Shown here one piece after another: positions 452 to 60,893 of a DNA stretch of 64,000 nucleotides. This stretch comes from Antedon mediterranea. Its lineage: Eukaryota > Animalia > Echinodermata. The stretch's first letter is position 1. Each line of letters begins with the position of its first letter. The notes beneath the pieces are model-generated. The model was not told the origin of the DNA. It worked only from the letters and a program-made list of their open reading frames with translations, and did no database searches. The translations under genes and the position numbers were made by a program. Location: assembly GCF_964355755.1 (NCBI RefSeq), contig NC_092674.1:7936001-8000000 (forward strand), read 5' to 3'.

Positions 452-2733
452 CTTGACAAGTATCACCAGTGTATCCATCCAAACAGTCTGACCCGGATGA
501 ACATCCTGTGTGTTTATCACAAACACTATCGTCACAGTGACATTCTTGGCGACAATCAGCTCCATAGTATCCAGCCCCACACACTATAAAACGTAGTTAA
601 ATATTATTCACAGATAATATTATGTTTACAGTTTTCACATCTTATTCTATCATTATTTCTTATCTTACTTGAGTGAACATGTAATAATCATTACAATAAT
701 ATTATAGTATAATCATATTATAGCAATAACTCTAATACAGTATAAATTATAAACTTTTTAAATCTATATATAATTTTACATAAGGGCACATTTTAGTAAC
801 AATAACCTGTACTACAATCATTTCCTCCAAAACCATTGATGCATGTACAACCAACTGGATCAGGTGGACAAAAAAGTATTCCAGTACAATTCGCACCCTC
901 GCTGCTACACACAGAGTCGCATTTACGACCCCAGTTGTTATTTCCACAACCTATCGCAAATAAAATACATACAATAACGTTCAATGTATGTTTATTTGTT
1001 AATTACACGTCCACGTATTTTAGCAGTTTATATTTAGGCCTACCGTTTTCACAAGAATCACCGTTGAATCCTGCTGGGCAAATACAAACACCCGTCTTAT
1101 CGTCACACACTCCGCCATTATAACAAACGGGACAGTTCATTTCACAGTCTGGAGGGTTCCATTTTGGTGAGGGACAAGCTAAGAAAGCATTTAAAATAAA
1201 TATAACTATACGATTATATTGGTTTGTATATTTTTGCTTAGTACAAACAGAATACTGCGACTAATGTTTAAGTTTTAAGTTTGTACATCATGTTTTCCAA
1301 ACTAGCATTTCAAATCTCAAAACTACATTATAAACTAATTTTAAACTAAAATAAACGTATTTCATTTCAAAATGTACTTTTCTTTTGTACCATTTTTCAA
1401 TAATATTCCTATAAATCTTTGTCAATGCTGTTTTTTTTTTTAACGTAGAATTATTATTATATCAACCGACCACATCAAATAATTCTCATTTGTATATAAG
1501 GAACTATTTTATCTGACGTTTTTCCATCTGTTTAATTAATATGTAATAAATGTTATAACTTACTTCTAACAATAAGTCTCATGATAACATGGTTACCATC
1601 AGGGCTATCACCTGTATAACATTCATATACGCCATCATCTTTTCTTCGTATGTTTCCAATCACAGCAGACGTTTTACCCGTCATATTGTGTATTTCCTTT
1701 CCATAATTATGTCTCCAGCGTAAATCGTCAAGATCACCACCTTTACTGAGATTGATAGTGACAGACTCCCCTATACCGACCGTAGTCGTTCTGTGCTCCA
1801 TTTCAATATTGGCTGTAAAAATTGAATCAATAGGTCTTACAAACTAAACGTAATTATGTAATGGGCTGATGTGTTTTTCTAGTTAACAATCACCTCTATA
1901 AAAAAAATTAATTGATAATTTAAGGACGGGATTGCATGGCATTACTCACCAGAAGCAGATTTCAATATTATTGCTGTATGTGTGACTACTCCATTTTTCT
2001 TTGCTTCAAATGAAAAGACACCAGTCTGAGTTTGTAAGTTATTAACACCTAGAAAGGTGAAATATTGGTGTGTTCGGAATCTAATTATGCTGTCGGTGGA
2101 AAATATTTTACCGTCTGGCATATCTTTTGTTTGCTGCCTAGAGCTTGGGCCTTTAAAATTACCAGTATCAGCCCAAGTCACGTTATCGTTTCCATTAATA
2201 TTCTTGTACAATATTCCAACAGATAAATCTCTGATGTCTTTGTCTTTTTGAAGTGCGAATCCTTGAAACCAACCATTACTATTCGCGTCAACTAGAGGTG
2301 TTCCAGAAAGTGCTGTTATATCTAATGGCTCTTTAAAGAATAAAAAAAATAGTAATTTTTAAATGAAGTTCGAACTGGTGAATAATAGCTAGTACTGTAG
2401 ACCATTTTCGGGAATACGGTATACATGTAGAATAAATAGATTATAGTAATATAACAATGTGACACAATTAGCAGTGGCTGTTTGCAGATTAGAGGTAACC
2501 TTATGATTTGTTATTTCTATTGTTACAGCAATTTGCCGATAGTTATTGCTTCCACACACAAAAAATTAGCCATGTATATTTCAATACAAACTAATGAATA
2601 AAAATAGGAACCCCCGATTTAAAAAAAAAATTGTAAACAAATCAGTATAAAACATACCTGATAATCCTGAATTAAACGTAAAATATAGAGTCACAAGCAG
2701 GTAGAACAAGTGTGAAAAACGTATAGCTAACAT
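452..2733 (-). CDS. Gene A: Tie-like receptor, 5' part (signal peptide, Ig1, Ig2, EGF exons); continues beyond window start
   Basis: GT-AG exons: 2658-2733 (MLAIRFSHLFYLLVTLYFTFNSGLS), 1950-2330 (EPLDITALSGTPLV..., Ig1), 1564-1812 (Ig2, ...DDGVYECY...MRLIVR), 1044-1178 (CPSPKWNPPDC...CYNGGVCDDKTGVCICPAGF), 807-950 (...LFCPPDPVGCTC), 452-583. All in frame. The RLIVR-C..KW..C / CICP.GF / FC.PDP.GC.C pattern matches the Tie1/Tie2 Ig2-EGF region as I recall it. Confidence 0.88.
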
Positions 2734-6014: not shown

Positions 6015-6041
6015 TAACTCAATAGGTTTATTTTTGATTTC

Positions 6042-9000
6042 TCAATCAACTGTGTTAACATAAACATGTTCCGGTGCAGGCTTGGTGTTTGCATAAACAT
6101 GTTCACCAGATGAGGATTCAACAGCAGGTTTAATTTCTTCATACTCACTTTCTTCATATTTCTTAGATAGACTTTGATAATTTGTATCTATTGTGCATAC
6201 ATTTTGTTGAACATCAAATTTAGCAGCGTGTTTTCCTGAATCTATACGTCTAAATCTAAAAGAGACCAAATGTATTTATATCAATCAATTAATAAAAAAA
6301 AATTAATAAAAAATAAATATTTCATCAATATCAAACAAGGCCAACAGCCATTAAGTCGCGTGCTACAATGCATAGTGATACCGGACCGACAGACAAACAG
6401 ACCGACAGACAGACAGACCGACAGACAGACGGACCGACCGACCGACATAGTGAACTATACTGACCGAAATTACTGAACATGTTTAAAAATGTTGAAATGT
6501 TTAAAAACATTTATATTTTTTTAATTTACACGTGCGTAGCCTGTCACTTTTGACGTGCTCGTATAACGTAATTTCGAGTTGAAAAGTAAGTCAAGAAAAC
6601 AGAAATCGGGCAAGAAGAGTGCGCAATAACATTTAACGTGCAGTGCGCGCGCAAAAATCTGCGCACTCATGGCAATTTTGTAAACGCTTAAAATTGCCTG
6701 AAACGTACTCTTATTTCATCGAAAATAAATTTTGAAAATTTTAAACGCGCTTACGCATGCGTTACATGCGCTACGCACGTAATTGTATTGCCATATGATG
6801 ATTTATGCCCTGAAATTTATGAGTACCAAATTTTATTTAATTGTGATTCATGGTTGTTAAGATATGATTACAAACGTGATTTCGTTAAATCGTGCGTAGA
6901 CCACGTAATTTTTTATTGCGTAATTTTCGATGAAATAAGAGTACGTTTCAGTCAATTTTAAGCGTTTACAAAATTGCCATGAGTGCGCAGATTTTTGCGC
7001 GCGCACTGCGCGTTAATTGTTATTGCGCACTCTTTTTGCCCGATTTCTGTTTTCTTGACTTACTTTTCAACTCGAAATTACGTTATACGAGCTCGTCAAA
7101 AGTGACAGGCTACGCACGTGTAAATTAAAAAATATAACTGTTTTTAAACATTTCAACATTTTTAAACATGTTCAGTCATTTCAGTCAGTTGGTAGGTTGG
7201 TCGGTCGGTCGGTAAACACTAAGCACGCGACTGCAGCCATCTATATGGCCTTGTTCTTTTAAGTTTTAAGTTTTGTGATATGGATAAAATATCAAGCATA
7301 GTAACAGTTTCAGTGTGTGATACTATATGGATGAAATATCAAGCATAGTAACAGTTTCAGTGTGTGATACTATATGGATGAAATATCAAGCATAGTAACA
7401 GTTTCAGTGTGTGATACTATATGGATGAAATATCAAGCATAGTAACAGTTTCAGTGTGTGATACTATATGGATGAAATATCAAGCATAGTAACAGTTTCA
7501 GTGTGTGATACTATATGGATGAAATATCAAGCATAGTAACAGTTTCAGTGTGTGATACTATATGGATGAAATATCAAGCATAGTAACAGTTTCAGTGTGT
7601 GATACTATATGGATGAAATATCAAGCATAGTAACAGTTTCAGTGTGTGATACTATATGGATGAAATATCAAGCATAGTAACAGTTTCAGTGTGTGATACT
7701 ATATGGATGAAATATCAAGCATAGTAACAGTTTCAGTGTGTGATACTATATGGATGAAATATCAAGCATAGTAACAGTTTCAGTGTGTGATACTATACCG
7801 TTTATACATCATCACGATGACAGCAACTGTGATAACTGCCGCGATTAGTGAGCCAATTACAACACCTATGATGTAACCTGGAAAATATAAAAGGACAAAT
7901 TTTCTTGTTTTATTTACATTACTGGTACTGAATCTAATAAGAATTCCAAACAATGAACTATGTATAATACACACCTTGTTTCTTTTGGTCACAATTTGGT
8001 CCAAAAATGAATTTCTTTGTGTCAGATGTCCCACTAACGTGTAAAAATGATGCCAATACTGTGAATGTATATTCTGTACATGACTCAATTCCTTCACCAA
8101 ACAAAACTTGAGTTTCTGTAGTATTTCTTTGCTGAAATATTCCACCACCTGACAGTTCATAATGGTAGGTCACCTGATAGTTTGGAATGTCACATGTAGA
8201 AGCGTTCCATTTCATCAGTATATGTGTTCCATTTGTGAATGGATTGCTTTTTATCGATGGCTCTATTATTGTAACATAGAATATTAAACAGATTTTTAAT
8301 AAATGAATTATACTAGACATTAAGAATTGTTTCAATTGGCCGATAAAATGTTTTACCCATTTTTTTATATATAAACTTTACACTAAATGACCAACTAGGC
8401 CTAAATGTTAGTAAAATACACTCACACATTTAATGATTTAAGCATACCTGATGGTGCTGTTTGTATCAATATGTCCTCTCCCCAATTACCAACAATCTCC
8501 ATATTATTAACAACTCGAGCGTTTACGACATAAGCAGTACAACTTAATAATCCTGGTAGTTGAACTTCTAATTGAGAACTGTTTGTTGTGTTGACTACAT
8601 TTAGTATACTTCCATCGATGTCTGAGTACTGCACTTGATATCGAAGGATATAGTTACACTGGATTCGATCATAATCACTAGAAACAGACTGAAATACAGA
8701 AAAAAGACAAATACCGTTATTTGAATCTGATACTGGTAACCAATTTCTGTTTGATAATATGTTATATTGTAAGGACAAACAATTAGAGAATACTTTACAA
8801 CTTTACTTGCTTGAACTTACTTAGTTCATTTACAAATACCAATAACGTAATGTATACGGTATTTACATTCACTACTTTAATTAGACTTTCTAGTAGGCCT
8901 CCTAGTTCCGTAATAATTAATTTGTTGATTGTGGAACTTACGATAATGAAGAACAAACAAGAACAATAAAAACATATCTAGTGTACCTTTAAATTCACTA

Positions 9001-12000
9001 TCATCTGATTATCTCCAATGGTTTTTAACTCCATCTCAGGTTCTTCTAAAGGCTCTATTTCATAATATGTAACACAGCGGATTAGAACAGACATACAAAA
9101 TACAACGTGGTGTGCTATGGTAGATATCATAATAATTTTTCTAACAACAAAGAATAAATAAAGGAATATCTCATATAATCCAACAAAAAGTTAGCATACT
9201 GTAAAACAAGTAAAAATTAATAATCTGTGAATGATAAAATCCTTAAAACAAATGTTGGCAATCTTTTAATTCTAGATCTATAGATACTAGATTTATAAAA
9301 TCAGTTGACGCGTTGCTGATTACATGGCTTGGCAGTTTGTTAACTGATTATCTGTAATGTTAGATCTTGCCTGAACATATTGTGTTGGTTGATCCAAGTG
9401 TACTTCTTGGTCCATCTACCTCAATACCACCAACCATCCTCGAAAACTGAGAGTAGAATTGAACTTGCGTATTTGGGATAAGTTTGTCAATGACAATACA
9501 TAAATCATTATATGATTCAGTTATTGATATAAATGAATCCATCTCCGATGATTTATACGAAAGTTTCCGTTTTGTAATTGTTCCTGTTCCATAGTCTTCA
9601 CCAAGAATCCAAGTGACGTCAAATGTTATACTTGCTGCTGTCTGATTTACAACAGTTGGTGGTTTAAAGTTGTATGGTAATGCTATTTATGAAAATAGAA
9701 AACACACTGAACTATTAAAACAGAATACATGTAGGCCTATGTGTTGTTCTGCCGTATAAACTTTACTAAATCATCTGCATATCTAATTAGATGGTTTTAC
9801 TCGCTTTATAGTCGGATGTATAGAGACTATAATGACTTCAGAGATATAGATAATATATGGGCAAGGCAATTGAGAATAATTCATAGAGAAACATACGATA
9901 AATGTTCATGTGGAGCAATTTGTCGATAATCAAGTGTAAATATGATTATGACTATCAATCTGTTTGTGTGTGCATCATAATTTTTGTGCAAATTAATTAA
10001 TTATTCTCTTTATGTGTATATAATCAGGTTTTAAATGTTTTTTTTATATTTACATAATTGACTATTTTGTAGTTTTTGTAGGGCTGTGGATACTCGCATG
10101 TTTTTGCGCATTGTTGCTTTCGCAACCTCTATTTTTGACCGATTGTGTTGATAAAATAAATGGAATGAATAAATAAAACTGTAAAACATGGAAACATTTG
10201 ATGATCCTAGTTGCCTATTGTGAATTTTCTAAATGGAAATCAAATTAACTGCATCTTCAGTTATACAATGAGGTACTACAGAGAAAAGGCAAGATGTATG
10301 TATGTGTATGTATTTAATTAATTAACTTTCATGACAAAATATGTAACTAATAATCTAATCTCTCTCTCTTTTCCGATAATTCTTCAGGCTACTTTGAATA
10401 GCTGAAAGTATACGACATATATAGTTTAATGTCGTGTAGTTACCTATGCTGCAGTTTGGTCCAGCCCAAGCTTCATGGCATCCATTATCGCAACCTCCAT
10501 CTCGATTACAATCTGCCGAAGCTTTGCAGTGACACAGGAAATTACACAAAGCACCAAAGAATCCGGATGAACATGACGGAGGCTCTTTAGAAACCAAGAA
10601 TAATATCATTAGCAATTTCAATGTACTGTACAGTATAAATGATTGTGTAAAAGTCAAAGAAAACTTAATTGAGTAGAAACTCAGTTACCAAAGTAAATGC
10701 ATAGAATTGACCAAAAGGTTTAATTTTCCTCCATTGTCCCATTATATTGTTCGGATTGATTTTTTGGTGAATTTGTGAATTTATTCGGGGTGAATCGCCA
10801 TTCAAATGGATCAGTGGTACATTTTAAACCGCCCAGTGATATAAAGAAAAGTATCTATCTTATTTTTAATAATATACTACCTAAACACGTGTCTCCTGTG
10901 TAACCAGACGAACATTTTGAACCGGAAATGCATCCTGTTGTTTTATTACAAACGCCATTGTCACAGTTACATTTTTGACGACAATCTGCTCCATAGTATC
11001 CAGCATCGCACACTGGAAAACATGAAACAATTGTAGTTTAAAATACTTACATCTTATCTAATATTAAAAACTGTAAAAATCAATCTTATACAGAAAATAA
11101 TAAAACAAAACAACTATACGATTAGTAATAATAATAATACTGAGATATGGTACAAATAGTACGAACAGTAATCACGGTGATAGATGTGAAAGCAGTGAAG
11201 CGATATCAATAGTATCAGCCGATTCTGCTACTGTCAAGAGGTATCTATCTGTAAAACTATGTACAGCATTTCTGCAGACAGCAACGTATATAACTTGCTA
11301 TAGTTGTATAGATAGATACCTCTTACAGTAGCAGAATCGGGTCCTAGTATATGAATTAGCCTAAAGGCAAAATTCGACATATCCCTCCAAACACCTATCG
11401 AAAACCAGTATACTAATCAAGTTTAGTTAGAAAAGTATTTAGGTTAAACGTAAATATTGTAAATAATGTGTATTCATAGTTATGTTACGTCATCATTGGA
11501 TGGCGGTCAATAATGTTAAACTTTATAGTAGTGACCTGTAGGGCTTAAGTTTGAGTTTTCGTCTGACATCAATAGTTGAAAAAATAGTTTGGCATAATGG
11601 CAAAGATAATTAAGAAATGCTTTTTTGCATAATTTATCATAATTTTGGAAATTTATTTATTTTATTAAAACATATTACCTCAACAACATATTTTTTGAGT
11701 ATTAATAGCACTAATAACACTAAAATATAATAATCATTATTTTCATCATAGGCACAAAACATATAAAATGTTCTGACCTGTAGTACAGTCTCTTCCTCCA
11801 AAACCTTTCATACATGTACATCCAACTGGATCAGGTGGACAGAAAAAAACCCCAACGCAATTTCCACCAGTAGAACAGTTACTGTTGCATTCATGGCCAA
11901 AGTTGTTAATTCTACATCCTTAAAAAATACATTAAAAGTATCTCATAAAAGAAACATCTTTACTACATCATAAAAGTATTATTATCTTATCCTTTGTATA

Positions 12001-15000
12001 GTATTGTATGTTTTTAACTGTTGTTATTTTTATTGTAATTTCAACCTTGGAAGGCAAATTTCATTTACAGTGTATTTGACAATAAATTTGAACTTGAACT
12101 TGAACTTGAACTTGAAGTAATTTGACAAATAATTAAAATAAAAACAAATTGTATCAAAAATAAAATTCGGAATTATTTACGGTCATTAATTTTGTTATAC
12201 ACTATCCCTTCACTTTGGAAACATATGTAAGCTAAAAAATGAAAGCAATACTGGATATGTAATTTAGACTTTACTTTTGACTGTTCTGACTTTACGAAAA
12301 AGAAAACATTTGATGATGCGCAAAAACACTAACGAAAGTACAAAATACCAAACTATATTATTTTTGTTGGTTTTCGTGGTGTATTAATTATTTTGATAAA
12401 TTTAGATAAAACAAAAAAGTTGACAGAAATCGAATGAAAAACATATTGCTGCGGAAACACGAATTGTTAAGTTTTTATGTTCTATATCAAACCATTTGGA
12501 ATCGTTTTGTTTGTGGGTGTTCATCATCATCTACATTTATTTTTATTTCAATGGTTTTGATATTTTGCATTTTCGTTTGTGTTTGGGAGATTTGATACCT
12601 ATTTGCTACTTTTTTAATTTTAAAACTGTGGTTTAGAAGTAAAGGTCATGTCTGCCTTAACAATAATTCGCATGGGATGAAAAAGCGCACTCTTCGCCCC
12701 GGCTCCTGAAAATCATGTTAAGAATTGTCAAGAAAAAATTCAGAACTATTTACGGCCATGATTTTGTTATACACGGAGTATTCCTTACTTTATAAGTGAA
12801 AGCAATAGTGGATATGGGAACTTTGTGGTGATCTAGGGTGCGCATCAGAGAGTGACAATGTGCATGAGAGAGAGGATGAAGTCTGTCAATCAGTAGGCAG
12901 TGTTGGAATAATAATAAAACTACAGCTGACTGACGGACTTTTATGAATAATGTGTTGAAAATAGATGATGATGTTTAATGTTTATTGCTTAATAACAATA
13001 ATAAATGTTATGTTTTAATAATTTGTTTACCTCCGCCAAGGATGTATATGTAGTCGATCGCTTGTATTTGTATCTGTCTGTTTGTTTGTTTGCAAGATTA
13101 CTCAAAAAGTGCATATTACAAGATTTTTACGAAAATGAAAATACAGATAAATATGTGATCAAGGACCAGGGTCCCAATTCTGGACCACTTTTTAGTATTA
13201 TTTTCAGACCTGCCAGATAGGAGACAATTCTCAAAAGCCGGCGAGCAGTCTTAAAGTAACAAGTAACCTGAACTTGCATTTTCTCGAGAACTACATGTCA
13301 AAAAAAAACTTCATTTTTGTACAGAAGCAAGAGTTATAATTTGTGATTTGTAATTTTAAAACATAATTTGATTTAATGTACAGTTTTATATGATTAGTTT
13401 TAAAAACCCTATTTCTTTTCAAATGTACCCGTTTATTTTTGGCGTTGCTGTTCTATTGTTAATCAACTGAAACTATTGTTAGTTGAAAGGCTGGTTACGT
13501 AACCATTACACCAAATCACACACAGCTCGCATTTCCGGTGAAATCTTATGTAAGAGAATTTTATAGTAGGCGGAGGTATGCACTCTCGGAGTATCGTTCT
13601 AATTTTAAGATTATTTATGTGATTTCCAGTTTTACAAAAATTGCCTTTAAATCCTGCTAATTATATTATAATACAATATAAATTAAGCTATTACCAGTTT
13701 TACAAGAAGCGCCTTTAAATCCTGCTGGACAAATACAGACGCCCGTCTTATCGTCACATACTCCACCATTATAACATATGGGACAGTCCATTTCACAATC
13801 TGGAGGATTACATTTTGGTGATGGACAAGCTATTAAATAAAAATAATAAAAATAATAATAATTTGTCCGAAAATGTAAACAGTCTCTCTGAAAGACAAAT
13901 TATAAGGTCAATGTGTTTTCATTTATTAGAACCAATTAAATAATGTATACTAATTTACTTTTAATTTAAAATATTTACATATTAGTATTATGTTCCAAGT
14001 GTGTATCCTAATCAGATATCAAACTACCTTGTTGGTAAATATTACTAATTGACGATGAAAATGCTTTTACAAAGATTTACCTCTAACAATGAGTCTCATG
14101 ATACCATGGTTACCATCCAGGCTATCACCTGTATAACATTCATATACCCCATCATCTTTCATTCGTATGTTTTTAATCACAGCAGAAGTATTACCTCTCA
14201 GATTGTGTATTTCCTCACCATAATTATGTCTCCAACGTAAATCTTCAAGATCACCACCTTTACTGAGATTGATAGTGACATACTCTCCGATACCGACTGT
14301 TATCGTTCTATACTCCATTTCAATAGTGGCTGTAAAATAATTATATTGGTAAACAGATAATAGTAATAGCTATTAAACAAAATATTAATGTTTTAAAGAG
14401 TATGAATAAAATTAGATATTATTTATTCATTATCGTCGTCCTCAAATTGAGAATAACATCATGACCTTACTCACCAAAAGAGGATGTCAAGACAATTGCT
14501 GAATTTGTGACTACTCCATTTTTCTTTGCTTCAAAAGAAAATACACCAACTCTTTCACTGTGAGGTAAGTCAGAAACACCTAGAAACGTGTGATCATCGT
14601 GCACTCGGTATCTAATTGTGCAACTTGTGGGAAATATTTTATTGCTTGGCATATTTGTTGTTCTTTCATTACCAGTATTGCCATCCGTATACGGCCCAGT
14701 ATCATCCCAAGTCACGTCTTCCCCTTCCATATTCTTGTATAATATTCCTACTGATAAATCTCGAATGTCTTTGTCGTCGTAAAGAGCGTATCCTCGAAAC
14801 CAACTACCATTATTGGCAACCAGTGGTGTTTCAGAATATGTTGTTATATCTAATGGATCTTTAAAAATAAAACATCATTTTTATGAGGAGAAAAAAAATC
14901 GGTAAATCGCTCGTAACTTTTACAATTTATAGTCTTCAATGACCGGCAACTAAGTACATACCTGAGGAGAATCCGGAATAAAACCTTAAAGAGAGAGCTA

Positions 15001-15040
15001 TAATCACGTAGAACAAGTTTGGAAAACGTTTAGCCAACAT
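6042..15040 (-). CDS. Gene B: complete kinase-less Tie-like receptor (SP-Ig-Ig-EGFx4-FN3x3-TM-ITAM tail), ~820 aa
   Basis: 13 exons: 14962-15040, 14475-14858, 14081-14329, 13695-13829, 11778-11918, 10881-11012, 10444-10584, 9371-9682 (GC donor), 8987-9054, 8448-8688, 7975-8262, 7799-7877 (TM GYIIGVVIGSLIAAVITVAVIVMMYKR), 6042-6255 (tail ...DTNYQSLSKKYEESEYEEI...EHVYANT...EHVYVNTVD*). Sum 2463 nt with consistent phases. Confidence 0.88.
6335..7254. mobile_element. Palindromic non-autonomous element (two opposed HINE/Helentron-like arms) in gene B last intron
   Basis: Termini ACAAGGCCA...TGGCCTTGT, GACA/GACC microsatellites on both arms, and ~260-bp near-perfect inverted arms (~6465-6725 vs ~6922-7185). 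Confidence 0.75.
7281..7797. repeat. 47-bp minisatellite, ~11 copies
   Basis: Unit TGGATGAAATATCAAGCATAGTAACAGTTTCAGTGTGTGATACTATA repeated head-to-tail, abutting the TM-exon donor of gene B. Confidence 0.95.
11219..11340. mobile_element. Small hairpin MITE
   Basis: CCGATTCTGCTACTGT(C)AAGAGGTATCTATCT ... AGATAGATACCTCTTACAGTAGCAGAATCGG inverted repeat. Confidence 0.65.
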
Positions 15041-17408: not shown

Positions 17409-17713
17409 CTTTGATGGTGTTTGTTGATCCAAGTGCACTACTTGGGCCTTCTACTTCAATACCACCAACCTTCCTCGAAAATTGAGAGTAAAATTGAACT
17501 TGCGTATTTGGGATAAGATTATTAATAATAAATACATCATCATCTGGTTCAGTTACTGAAATAAATGAATGTTAGAGTGGATGCTGTCTGGTAGACGGTT
17601 CAGAACTGTACGGTAATGCTATAATTATGGAAAAAAAAAGTACAGAAGATTATTCCAAAGAAAAGATAGGTTTATATAATTATGTTTTAGTTTGGAAATC
17701 GTTTAGCCGACAT
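17409..17713 (-). pseudogene. Collapsed remnant of a B-like paralog (signal-exon stub plus internally deleted FN3-1 exon)
   Basis: ATG at 17713 reads MSAKRFPN* (B: MLAKRFPN). 17409-17618 is a deleted and frameshifted FN3-1 exon (ALPY...NLIPNTQVQFYSQFSR..GGIEVEGPSSALGSTNT). Region ~18490-18670 resembles B's upstream region ~15645-15795. Confidence 0.75.
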
Positions 17714-28279: not shown

Positions 28280-28318
<39 letters not shown>

Positions 28319-45124: not shown

Positions 45125-45266
45125 ATAATAATAATAATAATTTAGGTATTTGTATAGCGACAGAATAAACTAAACCGAAGTAAAAATCAAAGATGCGTTT
45201 TAAGTTCTTTTTTAAAAATAGCAATAGAAGTTGATTTAGTAAAATGACGATGGAGAGAATTCCAAA
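45125..45266 (-). mobile_element. 5'-truncated CR1/L2 LINE fragment present in E only
   Basis: Minus strand reads LWNSLHRHFTKSTSIAIFKKELKT with a (TTA)n tail. Absent at the matching D site (~29910). Confidence 0.6.
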
Positions 45267-48200
45267 GATGACAAACTGCTGTAGAAAGAATACGCTACAT
45301 TTTCCTTTACTAATATATTAATATATTCTAATAACAAGTAGTAGAGAATATTTAAATTTATACCCACGTGCAATGAACAGTGATCGATGTATTGGTAGAA
45401 GACGTAGCACGTCCTTCCATTATCGTCATAATGAATTTAACAAATGCATCAATTTCAGGAACAGGTTTACTTTCTGGCCATTGGTTAACCTCATACAGAA
45501 TAATTTGCTGTACATTGTTATTCTACAAACACAAAACAAGGAATTATTAGTTTGAATTTTACTTACTGTTATTTGTTGTTCTTTGTTCAAATTGCTGTTT
45601 TCGCGATAACCATTTTATTTAAACGTTTTCTGTTTTTTTCCCTCCTGTCTTAGGAATTATGTAAACAATTGTTCTACTGCAATTACTCCATTAATTACAT
45701 CGTTTACTGCAATAGGAATAATCTTAGTTGGTTTCAGTGCAGAGATGTAGGTATCTATTATAATGTAATCTTCAAAAGAATCTTGCTTACATTTGTCTGT
45801 AAAATGTAAAAATATAGATACTGCTGTAACTCATGCATTACAATAATTTTGACATGGTACTTCAACAAAATATAACTAGAAAAAATGTAGTAACCTTTCC
45901 TAGATTTAATTTTCTCTCAGTCATATATTCGTTCTGAAAGTTTGACTTAGCAGTCACGGTTAATTCACCAAATGGTTGTTTTTGGTTGATCTTTTTCGGG
46001 AGGTACATGGCACTCGTTAGGTCTTCCATCTAATGTAGTTGTACAATGACGTCAGATTTAAAATCAAACACCAAACGCCAAAAATCGATCGTGGTATCCG
46101 ATAATGGTGTCCGAGTAACAACAAAAGCACGGCGACCCTTGTGACGCTAGGGTATAAATAAAAGATAACACCGGAAAATATTTGTGTTAAAATAAGTATT
46201 TAAAAAAGAGTATTTCTTCTATAATTGTCTTGCATGTGAATATTACTATCTTTACAAATTGCTTTTGAGATCTTTTTTCATTTATTACGTTCTCATATTA
46301 ATTGAGAAACAACATGTTTTTAGGTTCAGTTTGATTTCAAATAGCGCTAGCTTATGCCCCTCGCTTTCCTTTGAATGAGACGTTCACGTCCTCATACCTC
46401 AATGAGCGCAGCATTTACGTAATCTGCACCACTGCCAACATCCGGATTTAGTTGAAAACATCTTTTAGTCACTGTGATAAATTAAATAATATTAAGAAGC
46501 TTAATTAATTGATCTACTAATAATCGGGCTTATATAGTCGAGGTTCTAATCCTCATAAAAATCGTGATCATATTTAATAATCTTTGATGAACACATGCAA
46601 TTCAAAATGGCCATAAAAAAACCGGCTGAAAATTACTACATTACACCATTGAACCGTTCTTAATTGTGACGTTATGTTCTTGCTGTATAATAATAACCAC
46701 ATTATATTTAAAAACTTTTTTTATCAATAATAGTCAACGTATAGTAATAATTGGTCAGTTGTTTGCCCTACTTTTACGTAATTTGTACATACCGAGAATT
46801 CTCGGGTACATTATCATCAACATTGTTAATTACACTGATGTATTAAGTATGTAACTTACGGAACAAAACATTATGAAATGTGTCCTGGCAACTGATATCT
46901 TGTCGTCTAGTTTGTGACGCAAGATCTTCACCAGGATGTGGAAGCAAATTACGCAACGTCTGCGAATAAATGCATTGTTTAATACAAAATGTTTATCCGA
47001 ATCGTATATTCGTCATCGATGTCACAACCAACATTGCTACTATTAGTCATAGCCATTTCCTTTTTTTTTTTGCTTTTTATTTGTGTGCTTAAAACGCAGG
47101 CGAAAGAAATCCAATTTACTATTTTGTCGTTAAATATGTTCTTCTTTTTTTAAATTTTCATAACATAACGTGTTAGGCAATGTATTGCTCCCCCTTTTGT
47201 ATGAAATTCATTAAATAAGACTCATTAGGTAATTTAAGAATTGGCAGTCAGTTTTATGTGTGTTTAAAACTCGAGAGAAAGAAACGTATTATTTCATTGG
47301 GAAATATTTTATATTTTTTTTTCTTTTCTATGTATTTTATCATTTTTTAATAACTTTATGAATTCAATTTTCCTGTTTTCGTTTATGCTTTATTAAATAA
47401 GACTAATTAGTTAAACAAGACAGTCAGACATTAATTCTTTGTAATATAGAGAGATTCGTTCTGGTGTTGATTCTGAGAGGATAATGGGTAATTAATTTAA
47501 AAATTAGAACAAATCATGCTTTACCTCAAATTCTTTCTTTAATTGATGCTTCGTTACATAGCCATGCAGTTCGGATAACTCAATAGGTTTATAGTCTTCA
47601 TTTTTAGATTCTGTGACATCATAAACAAGGTCCGGCTCAGGTTCAGGGTCAGCGTATACGGGTTCAGTAGAAGAAGCAGCAACTTTTGATTTAATATTAG
47701 TATATTCAATTTTATTTTCAAATTTTGTGACGTCATAAACATGTTCAGGTTCCGGCTCTAAATCAGAATCTGGCTGTGTGTATACGGCCTCAGCACGGTT
47801 CACATAGGCATGTTCAGGCTCTTTCTCGGGTTTTGTGTATACATACATGGCAGAAGATTTAGTGGCAGCAGTAGACTGAATACTTTCATATTCTCTTTCT
47901 TTTTCAGATACATTTTGATATTCCGTATCTACAGTGCTTAGGCCTATATTCTGTTGACTAGTTGAAGATTTACCAACGTTGCCTTTGGAAAACAAGTGTC
48001 TAAATCTGAAATGAACAAATCATAATGTTTAAAAGAATGTATGTGTACGTCATCATCATTTTGATATTCTCTGTAATGGTTTTTTTTTAATTTTGTTAAT
48101 GCAGATATTTGTAATATTTACAATTTAGTATGATATTATTTTTGTAATACTGTATTTATTATCTGAAATATTTTTTTAAGAATATTTCTGTAAAAAGTAT

Positions 48201-51200
48201 TATAATACTTACCGTTTAAATATTACCAAAATGATTGCTACTGCGGCAACTATGGAAATTAGTGAGCCAATTACAACTCTTATTACGGTACCTAGAAAAT
48301 TATTTAATGCTTAATATGTTCATAAAGTAGTCATTTGAGGAGGGGGGGGTAGCAAAACAGTACAAAGGAAAATGTAAGAAATTAAGGGAAAAAAGAGAAG
48401 TAATATGATTAAAGAAATATATATATTTGAAGACAAATATTACTGATTATTTGTAATGTATTTAATTATGATGTGAAGGAATAAAGTGGTGGTTTACGCC
48501 ACAAAGGAGAGAAAAAAACGTAGTCATTAGGCATAAGTTATAAAAAAAAACAATGGCTTTAATAGAAAAAAATATTTATTTTTTTATATTAAAATGTTGT
48601 TTACCTATATAATCCATTCAAAGTTCAATATTTTTCTTCGTAGGACTAAGATTTTCGATTTTTATAGTTACTGAATTCTATTCACAAAGCACAAACAGTA
48701 AGGAACTAACCTTGCTTCTTTTGATCACAATCTGTACCAAAGATAATGGTCATTACGTCAGATGTCCCTCTTACGTTTAAATAAGACGCTAAAACTGTGA
48801 ATGTATATTCTATACACGAATCAATGCCTTCGTCAAAAACAACTTCAGTTTCTGTTGTAGTTCCTTGCTGAAATATTCCACCTGATAGTTCATAATGGTA
48901 GGTCACCTGATAGTCTGGAATGTCACATGTAGAAGCGTTCCACTTCATCAGTAAATGTGTTCCATTTGCAAATGAATTGCTTTGTATCGATGGCTCTATT
49001 ATTTGAAAAAAGAATAAATATACTATATTAAAAATAATTACTGTGATTATTAGGACTATCCTATGAGTAAATCTTTAGATTGAATACAATATAGTTAATA
49101 ATAGGAATAAGCATACCTGAGGGCGATGTTTGTACCGTTATGTCCTCTCCCCAATTACCAGCAATCTCTAAGTTATTAACAACTCGAGCGTTTACGACAT
49201 AATCTGTACAGCTTGATAATCCTGATAGTTGAACTTCTAATTGAGAACTGCTTGTTGTGTTGACTACACTTAGTATATTTCCATCTATGTCCGAGTACTT
49301 CACTTGATATCGAAGGATATAGTTACACTGAATTCGTTCATAATCACTAGAAACAGGCTGAATTATATAAAATAATACGTCAGAAAGAATGAGAATGAGA
49401 ATAAATACTTTTTCAGACATAGGCCAATAGAAATTTAGCTTAATCCTGTTAGCGGATAAAACAAGTTTACGAAAATTCCATTTACGTAAGTGAATGATTT
49501 GTGGAATTATCCTTGTCTACAGCAGCTCTCCGTAAAAAATGTAGGCCTATACAACACGTAAGTCAATTATAATTATATACAATTTTCAAACCTACTACTG
49601 TAGTTCAGGGGAATGGGTTTGTTTCCCTTTACTGGGATTGGAGTAAGAAACCGGCATCTATCAACGGAAAAACAGGAAACAGGATTGATATACTATTATT
49701 TACACCAAGCAAAACGTGTGAACAAAAAAAAATACTTTAAAACCTCTAAACACAATTTGACCTGGTTTTCTTCAACAGATTTCAGTTCTATCTCAGGTTC
49801 TTCCAAAGGTTCTATAACATAAAGAATGAAATTGCTGAGCAAACAGAAATCATGACGACATGCTTTATTAAATCGCTTCTGTATAAATATAGTTTAAAAT
49901 GTATTCTCAAAATGCACATTATAAAAATGTAAAAGTAGTCCAATATGTTTCAATTTTATAACTGACCTTCACAGATTGTGTTAGTTGTTCCAAGTGCACT
50001 TCTTGGTCCATCTACCTCAATACCACCAACCATCCTCGAAAATTGAGAGTAAAATTGGTATTGTGTATTTGGGATGAGATTATTGATAACAAATAATACA
50101 TCGTTATCTGGTTTAGCCATGGATATAAATGAATCCATTTGAGATGATTTGTACTCAAGCTTCCGTTTTGTGATTGTGCCTGTTCCATAGTCTTCACCAG
50201 GAATCCAAGTGACGTCAAAAGTTAAGGTAGTTGCTGTCTGATTTATATCACGTTGCGATTCAGTGTGGTATGGTAAAGCTATTTAATAAAACACATATCT
50301 GTGTATATTTTAAACAAAAACGGTGCTTTTTAATTTAACTTATATTAATAAAACAATATAAACATGTAAGCATGGAAGGTGATTTTTTTTTTCGTTCACC
50401 TTTCTTCACCCTCTCCATTTCTCCTTTCTCCCAACTTTAAATTCAGAAAAGTATCTCAAAGCTTAGGGTCTAATTATTCCTCATAATATAAATAAATGTG
50501 TGTCGTTACCTATGCTGCAATTTGGTTCAGCCCAAGCCTCGTGACATCCATTAGTACAACTTCCATCTCGATTACACTCTTCAGAGTCTTTGCAGTGACA
50601 TGGGAAGTTACACAAGACACCGAAGTATCCGGATTGACATGACACAGGCTCTTTACAAAAAAAAATATGATTATTATGTTTGTCATTAAAACTATTTAAC
50701 TCCAAAACTAATACAAGCTTCTGCAATTGTCTAAATCTAAAGAACATATGCTATAGGTTCTTTGCTCAATCTTATCACATTCGGTACAGCTCATTAGGAA
50801 GTATACTCTACAGTTAGAGGGAAAATGGCACTGTGGTCATGTTAACAATATAGATTATCTGATCAAATTCCTAGAAAGTAGGAAACATTTTGCCATTTTT
50901 TCCTGACTGTTCATGGTTCTCACACAAAAATAAGACTGTACAGTATTTTCAAGGTTGTTTTTCTTTCTACATGGTAAGTTAACAATATTTACAAAGGAAA
51001 CATAAAAATGATAATAAAAGAAAATGGTATCAAATTGTCAAATATCATTACCTAGACACCTGTCACCGGTGTAGCCAAACAAACATGTTGACCCAGAAGT
51101 ACATCCTGTATCTTGGGTACAACTGATGATATCACAGTTACATTTTTCCCGACAACCAGCTCCATAGTACCCATCCTCACAAACTTAAAAACATAAAATG

Positions 51201-51589
51201 AAGAACTTGTGTGCGATAACTCATGTCATGTCTCATGTTTCACATAGAAAATATAGGCCTATTAGTAACAATATACACGACCAATTATTAAATAAATATT
51301 AATTAGGCCTACATTATAAAACATACTATTCAACAAACCATTACCATAACTAACGAAAATTGTTAAAGGATTTTAGTATAATTGCTTTTCTGATCTTTGC
51401 TGATACATATGATATAGACCTAATTAAAATCTAACCTGTATCACAATCACTTCCTCCAAAACCATTGATGCATGCACAACCAACTGGATCAGGTGGACAT
51501 AAGAGAAATCCTCTGCAATTTCCAGTAGAAGAACATACAACTTTGCATTCACGACCCCAGTTGTTATTTCCACAGCCTCTTAGTAAACA

Positions 51590-53462
51590 TCATATTATAT
51601 TAAGTGTATATTATGTGTTTTTACAAATTTAAAAGGCAACATATTGTTTTACCATTATTTTGATAATGGTAAAACAATATTATGTTTTAAAAAAACATGA
51701 AAAAATCAATTTAAAAAAATAATAATAAAACATACCGCCGGTTTTCTATATATAAATTTACGTAGGGGCAAAATTCGGTAAATCGCGCGTTATTTCTAGA
51801 ATGTTTACTCGATGGTATATAAAGTTGGTTCGTACTTTCGGTACTGATTTTAACCGCCTGATGTAAACCTGTTTACTAATTAAATTGAGTTCAATAATTA
51901 GTTATTGACGATTAAAACGAATTTAGGTTCAATGATTTTCCCCAAATAGGGGTGTTTTTCGATCGCGGTATTGAATTGAAAAATACCCGCAGACGATAAT
52001 ACGAGGATGCTTCGCATTTTCCTATCTCCTCCTACGATAATTGTTTTTAATGGCTGAAAACCGGTTGAACAGCTCGAGTACAGCATCATAATGTTGAAGA
52101 CAGGCCGATTTTCTTTAAAAAATACTATTTTGATAGATTTAATATACGTTTATACAAATGTATTGATTTGCGATGAATGGAACATTCCAATCTCTGTTCC
52201 ACAATTGTCTATTCCCTCAGGCGTCGTAAAGGCCAGTACTGTATACTCATAACAGAAATTCGATCAATTTTTTTTTTTCAATCTGTGCTGCAGAGGTTGG
52301 ATATAATTTTTTTTTAAACGGATAAAGAGCTAGCGTTTTCACTCGCCGTATATTATGTATAAATCTTTATTATTGCAGTTAAACCACCCACATCATCACC
52401 CTTCCCTCACTGGCATGAGTAGCGTTGTAAAACCAGTAGAGGATAGGCCTACGGTACATCACATGCCCTCTTAATAAGTATGAAACAATTGAAAACCATT
52501 AGGCCTACTAATTAAGTTGAGTTAGATAATTTAATATTTATTGACGATTAAATCGAATTTATGATTTTCCCCGAATAGAGGTGGTTTTCACAAATTGTTT
52601 TACATTATATAAAAATATACACGTCGTAGTGATGTATCGTTACATGTACTGTACTATTTCAATCGACTTGGACGGTGATAGTTTCAACAAATTATTACAT
52701 CGCAATGTTTTACTGTGTTTAGTGGTATATTATTTGTAAAACATGAAAACAATAATAATAATAACTGGTACTTGACAATTTAGAAATTTCCAAATTAAAA
52801 AGTGGGTTTTGAGGAGAGATTTGAAGACACTGGTGGAAGTAGCCTGACGGATTTCAATAGGCAACGCATTCCATAGAGAAACGGATGCCGAAGAAAACTT
52901 AGTGGAAAGATGAAATATATGGGCAAGAAGAGACTCAGATCTAGATCTCAGAGACCGCTTAGGAACATAAGGTTGAATAAGTTCAATTAATATTTCGTTA
53001 CTAAATGGATAAAGAATATATTTAAAAATGGTTCCTCTTTGCACCCATCCTCTTCCCCATCCCTCAACCCTAATGTTACATACAAAACACAAATTAAGTT
53101 TGTTTAAATTTGACTTAAACAATTGGTCTCATTTTGTGACAAGTTTCTCTTTCGGAAGTAATTCCCATGGTGCTAATTTTAGTTGAGTACATAAATCACA
53201 GTGTCTATTTATTCGTTCCTGTAGGCTGTAAACGACATGTATTATTGTCCTACGGTACGTACATTTGAAATCGCCAGTTTTTTAACGCTGAAATTATTAT
53301 GTATTCAAGAACCATCTGTGGGCACGACCTAGATGGTACGCTCGCTTCGCTCGCGTACCATCTAGTAATCACAAATTTAAGCAAGCATTTTTTATTTATT
53401 TTATATGTTTTGATATTAACTCGTTTTGCTTTCTTATTATGAAATAATCGGTACTTTTCTTC
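51590..53462. mobile_element. ~1.9-kb composite insertion in E intron 4 (Helitron/HINE-like end hairpin plus nested LINE fragment)
   Basis: Absent in D (~37848). Hairpin CTAGATGGTACGC...GCGTACCATCTAG at ~53329-53365. Minus-strand ~52795-52985 reads YVPKRSLRS...LWNALPIEIRQATSTSVFKSLLKTHF (CR1/L2 ORF2 C-terminus). Confidence 0.6.
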
Positions 53463-56400
53463 AATCATTTTCGTATCAGTATATTACTTACACATTCTTA
53501 TTTTTTTAATAATCAAAATTATTCCGCTTGCGTTCGAAACTTCTCCAGTCGACTAATTAACATAAATAACATGCTATGTTTGATATTAATTTGTCTTTAC
53601 CATTTTGACAAGAATTGCCTTGAAATCCTGCTGGACAAATACAGATACCCGCCTTATCGTCACATACTCCGGAATTAAAACATACGGGACAGTCCATTTC
53701 ACAATCTGGAGGATTCCATTTTGCCGAAGGACAAGCTATTAAGATACAATATTGAAAACAATTTAAACAACTTGTAATAAATTGAGCGAGTTTCCTAAGC
53801 CTACCAGAAATACCACGTGTTGGCCTATAAGGATAAACAGAGGCGCCTCATAAGGTGGAACCACCTAAGCTTCAAGACGTCTCATCGTTGTACATAATAA
53901 AACAATAAAGAAAGTCACATAATATTCTATAATCATCGCACGCAATGAATTCTTTTTATTTATGTGAAATTATTTATGAGACCCAATCAAATATGATGCA
54001 ACATTTATAGTCCTGCATTTTTTTCCTGCTGTACACAGCTATTATTTCAACTAAATGCTATAATAGTTCTTATGGTTGACCAGATAAACAATGGTTAAAA
54101 AAGTACCTCTAAATAAGTAGACCTATAACTGTTAAAACCTACCTCTAACAATAAGTCTCATAATACCATGGTTACCATCAGGGCTATCACCTGTATAACA
54201 TTAATATACCCCATCATCTTTTATTCGTATGTTTTCAATCACAGCAGACGTATTACCCCTCAGATTGTGTATTTCTTCACCGTAATTATGTCTCCAACGT
54301 AAATCGTCAATATCACCACCTTTACTGAGATTGATAGTGACAGACTCTCCAATACCGACCGTTATTGTTTTGTACTCCATTACAATATTTGCTGTAAAAT
54401 AATAATTGGATAATGAAAAAAATCTATACTTTTATTTACGTAGAATTAGTTTAACGTAGTTCTATGAACAATCCTACAACAAAATACCAAAGATAATTTT
54501 ACAATTAAAGATATTGTGAGGAAATCTTGCCCATACTCACCAGAAGTGGATGTCAATACAATTGCTGAATTTGTTACTACTCCAGTCTTATTTGCTTCAA
54601 ATGAAAATACACCAACTCTATCAGCGTGAGTTTGAACGTTCGTAACACCTAGAAATGTGTGGTCTGAATATATCCGATATGTAATACTGCTACTTGTGTG
54701 AAATATTTTACCGTCTGGCATATCTATCGTCTGAGCTCTAGTGATAGCCCCACTGGCACCAGTATCATCCTAAGTCACGTTAGTTTCCCCGTCGATATTC
54801 TTGTATAATATTCCAACTGATAAATTTCTAATATCTTTGTCGTCTTGAAGGGCGTATCCTCGAAACCAACTATCACTAGCTGTCGGCCGTGGTGTGTTGG
54901 ACAAAAGTGTAATGTCTAATGGACCTTAAAATAATAATAGCAATCAGTCATTTTGCTGCAATTAAATTAGCTTTATAACATACCTTTGTATCTACATTTG
55001 ACTCAAGCTACAGTCACTACAGTGGAAATTCAATGGAGAGATGTAAGTATGGCCATTTTTTAGGCTGGCAGGGATTTAGACAAGTGGTATTGTAGTCTCC
55101 AGATACAATGTAATTTCAATCTGTATACAGGATAGAGGCGTAAATGTTAAAGCCATTAAGCCTACTGTAGGCCTATGTAGTTGTAGTTATTTGTGCCGAA
55201 ATAGGCATAAAACTAAATGACTTTTTTACAAACATCTTGATCAGGAATAGGTTTGATGAATTACTTCAAATAAGTAGGCTACAGTAGAGTACAAATAATG
55301 TAATCTAGCTTTCAGTCGATAAATGTAAATTTTTCTTGAGTATGAACGTATCATATTCGGTGCATGAATAAATATATTGATCAATAATAAAGATTCGGCA
55401 AGATTTTACTTCACATATATACATACGGACTGACAAGCAAAACTAGAAATATACTAGGACTTTACTATTCATTTTTTCCACTATACTTAATTCTAACATT
55501 CTCATGTAAATGGTAGGTTATTTAGGTCAGTAATTGGAAAGTTAGAAACATCATGGAGAAAACTAATAATCCTCTATTAGGTAAACTCTCGCACATTACA
55601 TTTGGTATTAACAGGGAGTTAAGTCAGAAATTCGTTTGTAAGAGTACAATTTTAAACATTATATTAGAGCCACTTATTGCAACTAATTTAAAAAGTAAGC
55701 AGATTAATCTTAAAGCAGCATACCTGATAAAACAAATCCACACGTCAAACTGAGAGTTATAACCAGACGAAACAAAGTTGGAAAGCGTTTGTCCAACATC
55801 TTCAGTAAGGTTGAAACATATTCACTTGTACAGACCTAACCAATGCTAAAATAACTATACCTGTATACAGTATGGTATTCTATTATTTGCGTAACAATTG
55901 GATAACCCAACCACGTAGAATGTATAAGGAAATAAAACATATTCCAAAATACATGTTTCCCGGGATGTATATAAAATAGATCCATTGTCAACGTTGTTAC
56001 AGGGTTCGTATATATGCTTCAATTGATTTCGACAACAATTACTAGAAAAATCAACGCCCACACCAAACTAATATATGCAGCCCAAACAAATTCTTTCGGC
56101 TGCGGCTAAATATTCCATTGTAACTAATTGATGTATGTCGCTTCATAAATCTTTTACATCATAAAGGAATCGAATTGATAACAAACCAACAACTCGTAAC
56201 ACAAATATTTTACACTACACAAAATCAGTGTGTTTTGTGCTTGTAAATACAGATTGCAGTAGAATAAAAATAATAATTAATAGTTCAATGACAATTTTGT
56301 TTTTAAGTACAGCATTTTGAATTACTTATTTTACTCTTGACATCCGGAGGTTGCTGGGACACCATTTGTCTGGGTGGTTGAGGGAATTGCCCTGGTTCTT

Positions 56401-57969: not shown

Positions 57970-58690
57970 ATGTTTTCCGTAAACTATTTGTCAAATATTC
58001 TTTATCTGGTTTTAGCAATTCTCAGTTTAGGTTGTCCAACAGAGTCTTCAGGTATGTTAAACGATTAAAATACGATACAGAGTTGGAGTAAACTATAGCT
58101 TGCGAATTTGTTTAGCCAGTTTTATCAGACACAAAGAGTGACAATGGAAATAAAGTGAACTAACAATGTAGCCTACTTTCAGAATGGCAATTTTAATCAA
58201 ATGCATTTCTTGTTCCTCTCTTTTCAGTTTTAAGTCTCTTTTAGGTTTAACTAAAGTTTTTTGAAAGTTCATAATTGAAAGTGAATCACTTCCAATCCAT
58301 TTGCAGATCCATTAGATATAACATTATTTTCTACGACACCACTAACGACGCCTAGTGGTAGTTGGTTTGCTGGATACATACTCCGAGGCGACAAAGACAT
58401 TCGAGATTTATCAGTTGGAATAATGTACAAGAAAATCGAAGAGAAAGGTAACGTGACTTGGAATGATACTGGGCATACGGGTGGTTATACTATTTATACA
58501 GATTTTAAAAATAAGCCTATGCCAAACAATAAAATATTTACTCCCACCAAGTGAAATTATATACAGGGTACATTATAGTCTAACAGCACTCTGAGTTACA
58601 AAATTACAGCCTCGAATTTAAAGAGTTGGCGTTTTTTTATTTGAAACAAAGAAAAATGGAGTAGTCATGTGCACAAATTCAGCAATTGTC
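57970..58690 (+). pseudogene. Gene F: truncated pseudogene (signal exon plus disrupted Ig1 exon)
   Basis: Exon 57970-58051 reads MFSVNYLSNILYLVLAILSLGCPTESS. The exon from 58307 reads DPLDITLFSTTPL...DIRDLSVGIMYK, has a frameshift near 58550 and TGA/TAA stops, and ends at ...NSAIV in an A-run with no donor. Confidence 0.82.
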
Positions 58691-59581: not shown

Positions 59582-60893
59582 ATGTTTTTCGTTAAATATA
59601 TGTCAAATGTGTGTCATCTGGTTATAGCAATTATCTCTTTTGGTTGTCCATTAGAATCTACAGGTAAGCTAAACGGTTAAAATAATATCACAAGGCTTAG
59701 ATAGCCTATTATAGTGTTTCATTACTTATTTTATCATTGATTTATACAAAGATATATGCCAGTAGTGTTTACAGAAAAAAGATTGTTAATATTCTTTAAT
59801 GTCACAAATTAACTTAAAAGCCTAAAAGAACTACGTGATGCTCTTAATAATATAGCAGAAGGAAGTAGACATTCAAACCAAATCATAGATTATGCTCTTT
59901 CAGTACCGTGGACGATAATCATAAGCCGACTCAGAATAGGCCTAAATTATTAATCATATATAATCTCAAATAAATATTTCCTAAAATTTAAGATCCATTG
60001 GATGTAACATTATTTTCGGGTAGCCCATTGTCGCAAAGGAGCGCCTGGTTTCGAGGATACGCACTTCAAAACGACAGTGACATCAGAGATCTATCAGTTG
60101 GAATATTATACAAGATTATTCCTGGTAGAAATAACCTGACTTGGAAAGATACCGAGTATTCGGGTAATCATACTGGTAATATGAAAGTTAAAGATATGCC
60201 AGACGGAAATGTGTTCTACACAAGCAGCAAAATTATATACCGATTACACGCCAATTTGACTTTTCTTGGTGTTTATAATAACGTCGAACGACCTCAGATG
60301 ATTGGTGTATTTTCATTTCAAGCAAAGAAGGATGCAATAGTCGCCAACTCGGCAATTGTCTTGACATCCGCTTCTGGTGAGTAACTAATTATCAGCTATT
60401 TATAATAATAATAATATATCTATTTACTCCAAAATAAATCTATACAAATAATTCAAATGTATTTATTTGTCATCGCATACGTACACAGTGATATTTCGAA
60501 ACAATTTCAAGCGTTTTATTAGTTTAACGATTAGTTTACACTTGCTTTAATGAGAATAGACTACATGATATTTTGAAACATTTTCACAGATATCAGCACT
60601 CAATTGCAATTTTTAGTATTTAGGCTATTATTGGTATTTCACAGCCAATATTATAATAGAGTACAGAACGACAACGGTCGGTATTGGAGAGTCTGTCACT
60701 ATCAATCTCAGTAAAGGTGGTGATCTTAACAACTTACGTTGGCGACATAATTACGGTGAGGAAATACACAATCTGAGGGGTAATACGTCTGCTGTGATTG
60801 AAAACATACGAAGAAAAGATGATGGCGTATATGAATGTTATACAGGTGGTAGTCCAGATGATCACCATGGTATCATTAGACTTATTGTAAGAG
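59582..60893 (+). CDS. Gene G: Tie-like receptor, 5' part (signal peptide, Ig1, Ig2); presumably continues beyond window end
   Basis: Open GT-AG exons: 59582-59663 (MFFVKYMSNVCHLVIAIISFGCPLEST), 59993-60376 (Ig1), 60645-60893 (Ig2, ...DDGVYECY...RLIVR). No EGF exon was seen before 64000. Confidence 0.82.

Follow-up and report, generated by a model that had tools for sequence, protein, structure and literature searches.

Immune receptor diversity in echinoderms is known mainly from the TLR, NLR, SRCR and SpTransformer expansions of sea urchins. Outside the echinoderms, the Alr genes of Hydractinia are described in the available part of PMC9546547 as clustered receptors of the immunoglobulin superfamily (IgSF) with a variable, cysteine-less first domain, a fibronectin type III (FN3)-like stalk, tails bearing ITAMs (immunoreceptor tyrosine-based activation motifs) and many pseudogenes, and the available part of PMC8282982 places Alr2 domain 1 under positive selection. 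In the vertebrate paired receptors (CEACAM, Siglec, CD300), activating ITAM members stand beside members with opposing tails, with gene conversion and lineage-specific birth and death (PMC5112662, as far as its accessible text goes). The Tie receptors share an Ig1-Ig2-EGF module on an FN3 stalk, and Tie2 binds angiopoietins through Ig2 (PMC8560823, accessible sections). The locus examined here is a window of 64,000 nucleotides from the crinoid Antedon mediterranea (NCBI RefSeq assembly GCF_964355755.1, contig NC_092674.1, positions 7,936,001 to 8,000,000 of the forward strand). Judged from its sequence and a modeled fold, it holds a tandem cluster of membrane receptor genes, each with two Ig domains, four EGF-type domains and three FN3 domains, with a predicted Tie2-like ectodomain and no kinase. 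The family would resemble the Alr and paired receptors in its working and belongs to neither; it is not a Tie kinase either.

Six-frame translation of the window gave seven Ig1-type exons, with copies A to E on the minus strand and copies F and G on the plus strand (Table 1). The unit runs from a signal exon through Ig1, Ig2, four EGF-type exons and three FN3 domains to a transmembrane exon and a tail. The Ig1 of copy B is 100% identical to P0001, an Antedon mediterranea protein according to its source, and all 16 matches of a search with this domain belong to Antedon or Anneissia japonica. A profile search returned 50 matches at E <= 1e-40, with crinoids dominating and the remoter matches coming from other echinoderms and amphioxus. 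In the trees of Ig1 and of Ig2, five Anneissia proteins formed one side of a well-supported branch, so the family was expanded or homogenized separately in each genus. Summed contig depth in run X1 was 460 to 900 at conserved exon stretches versus 9 to 14 on unique stretches, which hints at dozens of family copies, contig depth not being equal to copy number; the read-contig comparisons throughout used short contigs of four runs only. The public gene models P0001 (copy B), P0014 (copy E) and P0016 (copy C) are truncated or skip exons, and neither intact ITAM receptor (B or C) was annotated whole among the proteins retrieved. No published description of the crinoid family was found in the literature searched, whose coverage mostly excludes subscription journals.

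The ancestry of the ectodomain emerged from structure and profiles. A Pfam scan of Ig1 gave no credible family (0 of 5 exons above the cut-off), and all matches in an ESM Atlas search were under 0.9. An AlphaFold2 model of the relative P0006, which is 59 to 80% identical to the window exons, was built from a 48-row alignment and reached a predicted local distance difference test score (pLDDT) of 87.5; an earlier model from 13 sequences, with a pLDDT of 44, was dropped. The P0006 model matched Tie2 (2gy5) with a Z score of 28.5 and a root mean square deviation of 2.9 over 275 residues, and the next non-Tie structural match reached only a Z score of 10.4. By profile, the ectodomain matched 4k0v with an E value of 2.6e-48. 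Since the model aligned to Tie2 from the first Ig1 residue onward, Ig1 is predicted to be a true counterpart of Tie2 Ig1, despite the Pfam miss and the missing cysteine pair.

The module and stalk are thus common to the window genes and to Tie1, Tie2 (TEK) and the sea urchin SpTie1/2. Unlike the Tie receptors, the window genes have no third Ig exon and carry a fourth EGF-type exon in its place, and their Ig1 exons are without the conserved cysteine pair and, judged by predicted secondary structure, contain a long C-D segment that carries a variable loop. Tails in the family are an ITAM, the D2 domain of a protein tyrosine phosphatase (PTP) only, or PTP D1 plus D2; an intracellular tyrosine kinase domain is absent from the window genes, B and C ending in short tails and D and E in PTP D2 exons. 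The tandem copies here are many, whereas the available part of PMC12113024 names a single orthologue in the sea urchin. The same text reports SpTie1/2 expression in coelomocytes and the axial organ, which by analogy would be a weak pointer to immune cells. The sequence-only reading of this DNA had invoked angiopoietin binding through Tie2 Ig2; that statement is right for Tie2, but with no kinase and with Ig2 only 61% identical between genera, the link is not transferable to the window genes.

The same reading had described hypervariable loops of different lengths in Ig1, and what it quoted is present in the window: seven loop strings of 12 to 16 amino acids between the anchors TWxDT and MP, further variable patches, and two stretches that hardly change, DIRDLSVGILYK and GVFSFEAKK. 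In protein, Ig1 pairs of the window copies are 52 to 77% identical. Loop nucleotide identity was 0.43 versus 0.60 expected for neutral codons simulated on the framework tree, with none of 1,000 simulations as low, and loop amino acid identity was 0.19 versus 0.33 (6 of 1,000 as low). Over 126 columns, variability among the window copies correlated (Spearman 0.81) with that among 14 proteins that the window does not encode, and in 19 relatives with readable anchors the loops were 11 to 19 residues long and mostly dissimilar. The Ig1 patches evolve faster than neutral. Variation had also been said to be confined to Ig1. This is indeed the diversified domain, but EGF2 and EGF3 pairs are only 58 to 76% identical outside the D/E pair. 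In P0006 the hypervariable loop (residues 83 to 96) is predicted to form a coil followed by a short strand, and it would sit within a 41-residue segment between the strands assigned C and D. Under our assignment of strand names, the remaining variable sites appear to fall in strand A with its following coil, in the A-B and E-F loops and in the D-E turn. The term CDR-like, after the complementarity-determining regions (CDRs) of antibodies, is an analogy, as the variable patches do not lie just at antibody CDR positions.

Site tests used our own implementation of the GY94 codon model with F3x4 frequencies, comparing M1a with M2a and M8a with M8. With the loop and gap zones removed from Ig1 (88 gap-free columns, seven copies), M2a improved on M1a by a doubled log likelihood difference (2dL) of 17.9 (p 1.3e-4), assigning a dN/dS ratio (omega) of 6.9 to 6% of sites; the M8a/M8 comparison on these columns gave 14.9, and an MG94 form of the test gave 15.0. 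On the intact copies A, B, C and G alone, the Ig1 test gave 2dL 7.6 (p 0.023). Control regions gave 0 for Ig2, 0 for Ig2 plus EGF1, 0.63 for EGF4 plus FN3 and 4.7 for EGF1 to EGF3, and the test on all EGF and FN3 exons reached 6.5 (p 0.039, 460 columns) versus 16.4 for Ig1 in the same five copies. Null simulations under plain M1a reached a maximum of 7.1 over 14 runs. The fastest Ig1 sites are single codons flanked by conserved neighbors, in gap-free strands and turns, and independently defined variable columns had a ratio of nonsynonymous to synonymous differences (pN/pS) of 1.19 (1.00 to 1.47). An M1a/M2a comparison on all Ig1 columns, with a 2dL of 30, was set aside as alignment-driven, its omega of about 24 being implausible. 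Selection as the cause of the fast Ig1 patches is suggested, not proven, with support at p of about 0.02 to 0.04.

Ig2 tells a different story from the one first proposed. To call it almost invariant was an overstatement: Ig2, present in six of the seven copies (F is without it), is 82 to 93% identical, and 6 to 15 of its 82 residues differ per pair. In these six copies the proportion of synonymous differences (pS) is 0.165 (0.11 to 0.23) for Ig2 and 0.29 (0.24 to 0.34) for the Ig1 framework; the bootstrap intervals do not overlap, and pS in FN3b is similarly low (0.167). Identity of Ig2 averages 79% for the 36 pairs inside Antedon and likewise 79% for the 10 pairs inside Anneissia, but 61% for the 45 pairs that join the two genera; the corresponding Ig1 values are 60%, 63% and 52%. 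The branch between the genera is about 0.5 in both trees, and median tips are 0.31 for Ig1 versus 0.07 for Ig2. Copy G has the most distant Ig1, yet its Ig2 is near the others, and at the beginning of the intron after Ig2 it agrees with D and E at 17 of 18 bases. The D/E pair is a mosaic: intron 1 differs by 31%, Ig1 by 18.5%, the intron between Ig1 and Ig2 by 1.5% and Ig2 by 8%, and the stretch from the intron after EGF3 through FN3a by only 0.3 to 0.9%; the Ig1-Ig2 intron of this pair is likely a gene conversion tract. The case that the sequence-only reading had named as counting against it, Ig2 similarity due purely to gene conversion, is half borne out: pS is low and Ig2 is alike within genera only, but the introns are not homogenized outside D/E, and an Ig2 omega of 0.26 indicates that purifying selection acts. 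The likeness of Ig2 is likely due to exon-scale gene conversion together with purifying selection, rather than to a deeply conserved angiopoietin or other ligand site.

The tails of the intact copies suggest where these receptors came from. Copy B ends in YQSL-x8-YEEI and copy C in YQSL-x8-YEDI, both fitting the ITAM consensus Yxx[I/L]x(6-9)Yxx[L/I] taken from the available part of PMC9546547, and in both the ITAM is followed by two further tyrosine motifs and then a stop. An ITAM also occurs in P0015, with near-matches containing V in D, E and P0038. Right after the stop of copy B, the motif KPIEL can be read in frame (window 6045-6015, minus strand). D, E and P0004 have KPIEL as their juxtamembrane motif, from which the sequence runs on into the phosphatase region, and behind the B stop it is probably a relic of a receptor-phosphatase juxtamembrane exon. 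Judged from this relic, the ITAM genes would be truncated receptor phosphatases, in which the juxtamembrane exon gained a stop and the PTP exons were lost. A (TAGGC)n repeat lies directly after the relic (window 5936-5999). In D and E a single transmembrane helix is followed by a long exon rich in tyrosine and by PTP exons of the D2 type. These phosphatase exons are Pfam Y_phosphatase pieces with 48 to 87% identity to the D2 of P0004, and a sensitive tblastn search with three full-length relatives as queries found no PTP D1 exon in either copy; the catalytic D1 signature HCSAGAGRTG is present in the relatives P0004, P0012 and P0042. Retention of D2 without D1 in D (29131-31689, minus strand) and E (44336-46962, minus strand) is an unusual receptor architecture. 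The ectodomain, KPIEL and PTP domains are common to the window family and to deuterostome receptor PTPs named PTPRT-like or PTPRK-like (P0004, P0012, P0020, P0024, P0027). Unlike those invertebrate receptor PTPs, D and E are without D1, and B and C are without both PTP domains and bear an ITAM.

Several copies are broken. The Ig1 exons of three of the seven (D, E and F) are disrupted. The Ig1 of copy D is frameshifted by one base near 39203, where the exon begins; in copy E a TAG stop replaces the anchor W codon in Ig1 (54770-54772), with further stops in Ig2 and in D2; and copy F is frameshifted after the loop and has neither a donor site nor Ig2. One contig of run X1 carries the extra base of D, so that an assembly error is unlikely, and both contigs of run X8 that cover the place are without it; the frameshift is therefore likely a null allele, or X8 contains a close paralogue. 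Run X8, at most presumed to be RNA, also has contigs over introns, and the organism-B contigs reach neither the loop nor the introns of D. The orphan signal exon and the FN3 fragment (Table 1) are two more relics.

On balance, we lean toward the view that the cluster is a diversified innate immune recognition family. Its copy-specific Ig1 loops would bind varying foreign or self ligands and signal through ITAMs in B and C or through phosphatase domains (D1 and D2 in relatives, D2 only in D and E). Inside each genus, gene conversion would hold Ig2 and the stalk to a common form and leave Ig1 out, probably because selection favors differing Ig1 surfaces, and copies would be born and lost rapidly, the ITAM genes having arisen from a receptor-phosphatase gene by the juxtamembrane stop and PTP exon loss. 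The crinoid genes are a candidate paired receptor family. More tentatively, crinoids could have independently built a paired immune-receptor system on a Tie ectodomain, with phosphatase-derived ITAM receptors, a diversified cysteine-less Ig1 into which a hypervariable loop is inserted, an Ig2 and stalk that conversion keeps interchangeable, and dozens of specificities for recognizing self or non-self.

A number of results weigh against an immune recognition family shaped by selection. Positive selection is not cleanly separable from locally faster change of all kinds. A class with omega of 1 and a five-fold rate fits the 88 columns equally well (log likelihood [lnL] of -1156.05 versus -1155.70) and fits all 131 columns better (lnL -1969.9 versus -1971.7), and gamma-distributed rates lower the Ig1 test to 2dL 8.0 and 7.2. 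A rate-varying null without selection reached 17.9 in 3 of 71 runs and passed the 5% threshold of 5.99 in 38 of 71. Loop pN/pS is 1.10 (95% confidence interval, 0.97 to 1.29). The earlier claim of positive selection on Ig1 accordingly keeps its site-model signal, seen in Ig1 and in neither Ig2 plus EGF1 nor EGF4 plus FN3, but is weakened by these neutral alternatives. The purifying selection on Ig2 counts here too, and outside D/E the flanking introns are at shuffled-level identity (0.63 to 0.71 versus 0.60 to 0.62), so conversion would need to be restricted to the exon. Most of the PTP-bearing relatives scanned have neither an ITAM nor an immunoreceptor tyrosine-based inhibition motif (ITIM). 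In vertebrate paired receptors conversion equalizes the ligand-binding domains, as the accessible text of PMC5112662 has it; here the pattern is reversed, with the distal domain escaping. Inhibition there runs through ITIMs, and here the opposing tail would be a built-in phosphatase. Finally, a contig of organism B over window 25362-25791, which includes the C loop, had 14 differences in 428 bases (about 97% identity), and a neighboring intron contig had 32 differences in 904 bases. As the loop differs about as much as the intron, it is not rapidly replaced between the two organisms. This is more in keeping with a paralogue repertoire than with alleles that constantly replace each other.

Relaxed constraint combined with escape from conversion would account for many of the same observations. 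Tolerant surface loops would drift by indels and substitutions and, once diverged, would no longer be converted, while the framework and Ig2 were, all without diversifying selection. The equally good fit of the fast-neutral class, the loop pN/pS near 1 and the frequent significance under a rate-varying null are what drift predicts, as are the higher pS in variable columns (0.44 versus 0.28) and the three pseudogenes among seven copies. We nevertheless regard this explanation as unlikely. The signal persists with intact copies alone, M2a plus gamma still improves on M1a plus gamma at p of about 0.02 to 0.03, identical columns vary in two genera, and single fast codons between conserved neighbors make a pattern finer than conversion tracts would be expected to leave.

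A second alternative, which we consider rather improbable, is that the genes serve adhesion or self-recognition by a homophilic code like that of Hydractinia Alr1/Alr2, in which each Ig1 variant would bind its own kind on an opposing cell and the ITAM or phosphatase tails would report match or mismatch. The window family does share with Alr, as described in the available parts of PMC9546547 and PMC8282982, a variable cysteine-less N-terminal Ig domain, an FN3 stalk, ITAM tails and a cluster with pseudogenes. It differs in its Tie-like ancestry, indicated by sequence and fold, and in its EGF repeats; variation here was seen among paralogues, and the C loop region was held at about 97% identity by organism B. 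Crinoids, moreover, are solitary animals. Least probable are developmental or regenerative receptors that divide endogenous ligands, such as angiopoietin-like or fibrinogen-domain proteins, and use Ig2 as the shared site in the manner of Tie2 (PMC8560823, accessible sections): the Tie2-like fold and Ig2 omega of 0.26 would suit them, but the 61% identity of Ig2 between the genera and its low dS are better explained by homogenization, and frequent pseudogenes and a sample-dependent frameshift would be atypical of developmental receptors.

Coordinates are collected in Table 1. The remainder of copy A presumably lies past the window start, and no exon of copy G beyond Ig2 was found up to position 64000, which leaves a long intron or a truncation. 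The first FN3 exon of copy B ends with a GC donor (window 9371). An 11-copy tandem array of a 47-bp unit with 99% identity (window 7278-7797) begins at the donor of the B transmembrane exon and incorporates donor-adjacent sequence, and the last intron of B contains an inverted repeat of about 298 bases with 94% identity (6429-6726 and 6923-7213), possibly a foldback or miniature inverted-repeat transposable element (MITE)-type element. D (41284-42243) and E (57351-57730) have similar upstream regions that run in one direction. Past the D version comes the orphan signal exon at 42310, and past the E version F and G start on the opposite strand. At 15400-15500, 18190-18300 and 22200-22650 there are short interspersed repeats whose summed contig depth was very high in each of the four runs, and elements bearing (GACA/GTCG)n occur at 6384, 16354, 39723 and 40176.

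Table 1. Receptor copies and related features, in window positions (TM, transmembrane exon).
Feature	Position	Strand	Parts and remarks
Copy A	452..2733	-	Signal exon 2658-2733; Ig1 1950-2330; loop 2122-2163; Ig2 1564-1812
Copy A EGF exons	1044-1178, 807-950, 452-583	-	All copy A exons open, with AG/GT ends
Copy B	6045..15040	-	Intact; 820-aa open frame after splicing
Copy B exons		-	Signal 14962-15040; Ig1 14475-14858; loop 14653-14697; Ig2 14081-14329
Copy B 3' part		-	Four EGF-type exons; three FN3 domains; TM 7799-7877; ITAM tail exon 6255 to ~6045
Isolated first-FN3-exon fragment	17413..17568	-	Relic copy
Copy C	20697..27244	-	Intact; 822-aa open frame after splicing
Copy C exons		-	Signal 27169-27244; Ig1 25549-25926; loop 25727-25762; Ig2 25163-25411
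Copy C 3' part		-	Four EGF; three FN3; TM 21058-21136; ITAM tail exon 20925 to ~20697
Copy D	29131..40555	-	Signal 40480-40555; Ig1 38828-39215; loop 39009-39050; Ig2 38445-38693
Copy D 3' part		-	Four EGF; three FN3; TM 32917-32995; juxtamembrane exon rich in tyrosine; of the PTP exons, D2 type only
Ig1-Ig2 intron of D	38694..38827	-	2 differences from E in 134 aligned bases
Orphan family signal-peptide exon	42310..42385	-	No Ig1 exon behind it
Copy E	44336..55799	-	Pseudogene; middle part a near-duplicate of D
Copy E exons		-	Signal 55724-55799; Ig1 54541-54924; loop 54722-54760; Ig2 54143-54391; PTP D2-type exons only
Copy F	57970..58690	+	Truncated pseudogene; signal exon 57970-58051; Ig1 from 58307; loop 58471-58518
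Copy G	59582..60893	+	Signal exon 59582-59663; Ig1 59993-60376; loop 60154-60195; Ig2 60645-60893

If the reading as an immune recognition family is true, the echinoderms would gain a further class of receptors in this diversified, ITAM-tailed IgSF cluster of crinoids. A variable recognition scaffold would have been made from the Tie ectodomain, which is known as a vascular receptor module and as conserved, and a receptor phosphatase would have turned by a direct path into an activating receptor, the old exon fossil being legible behind the stop. The cluster would then supply specific genes as candidates for how an invertebrate deuterostome recognizes non-self.

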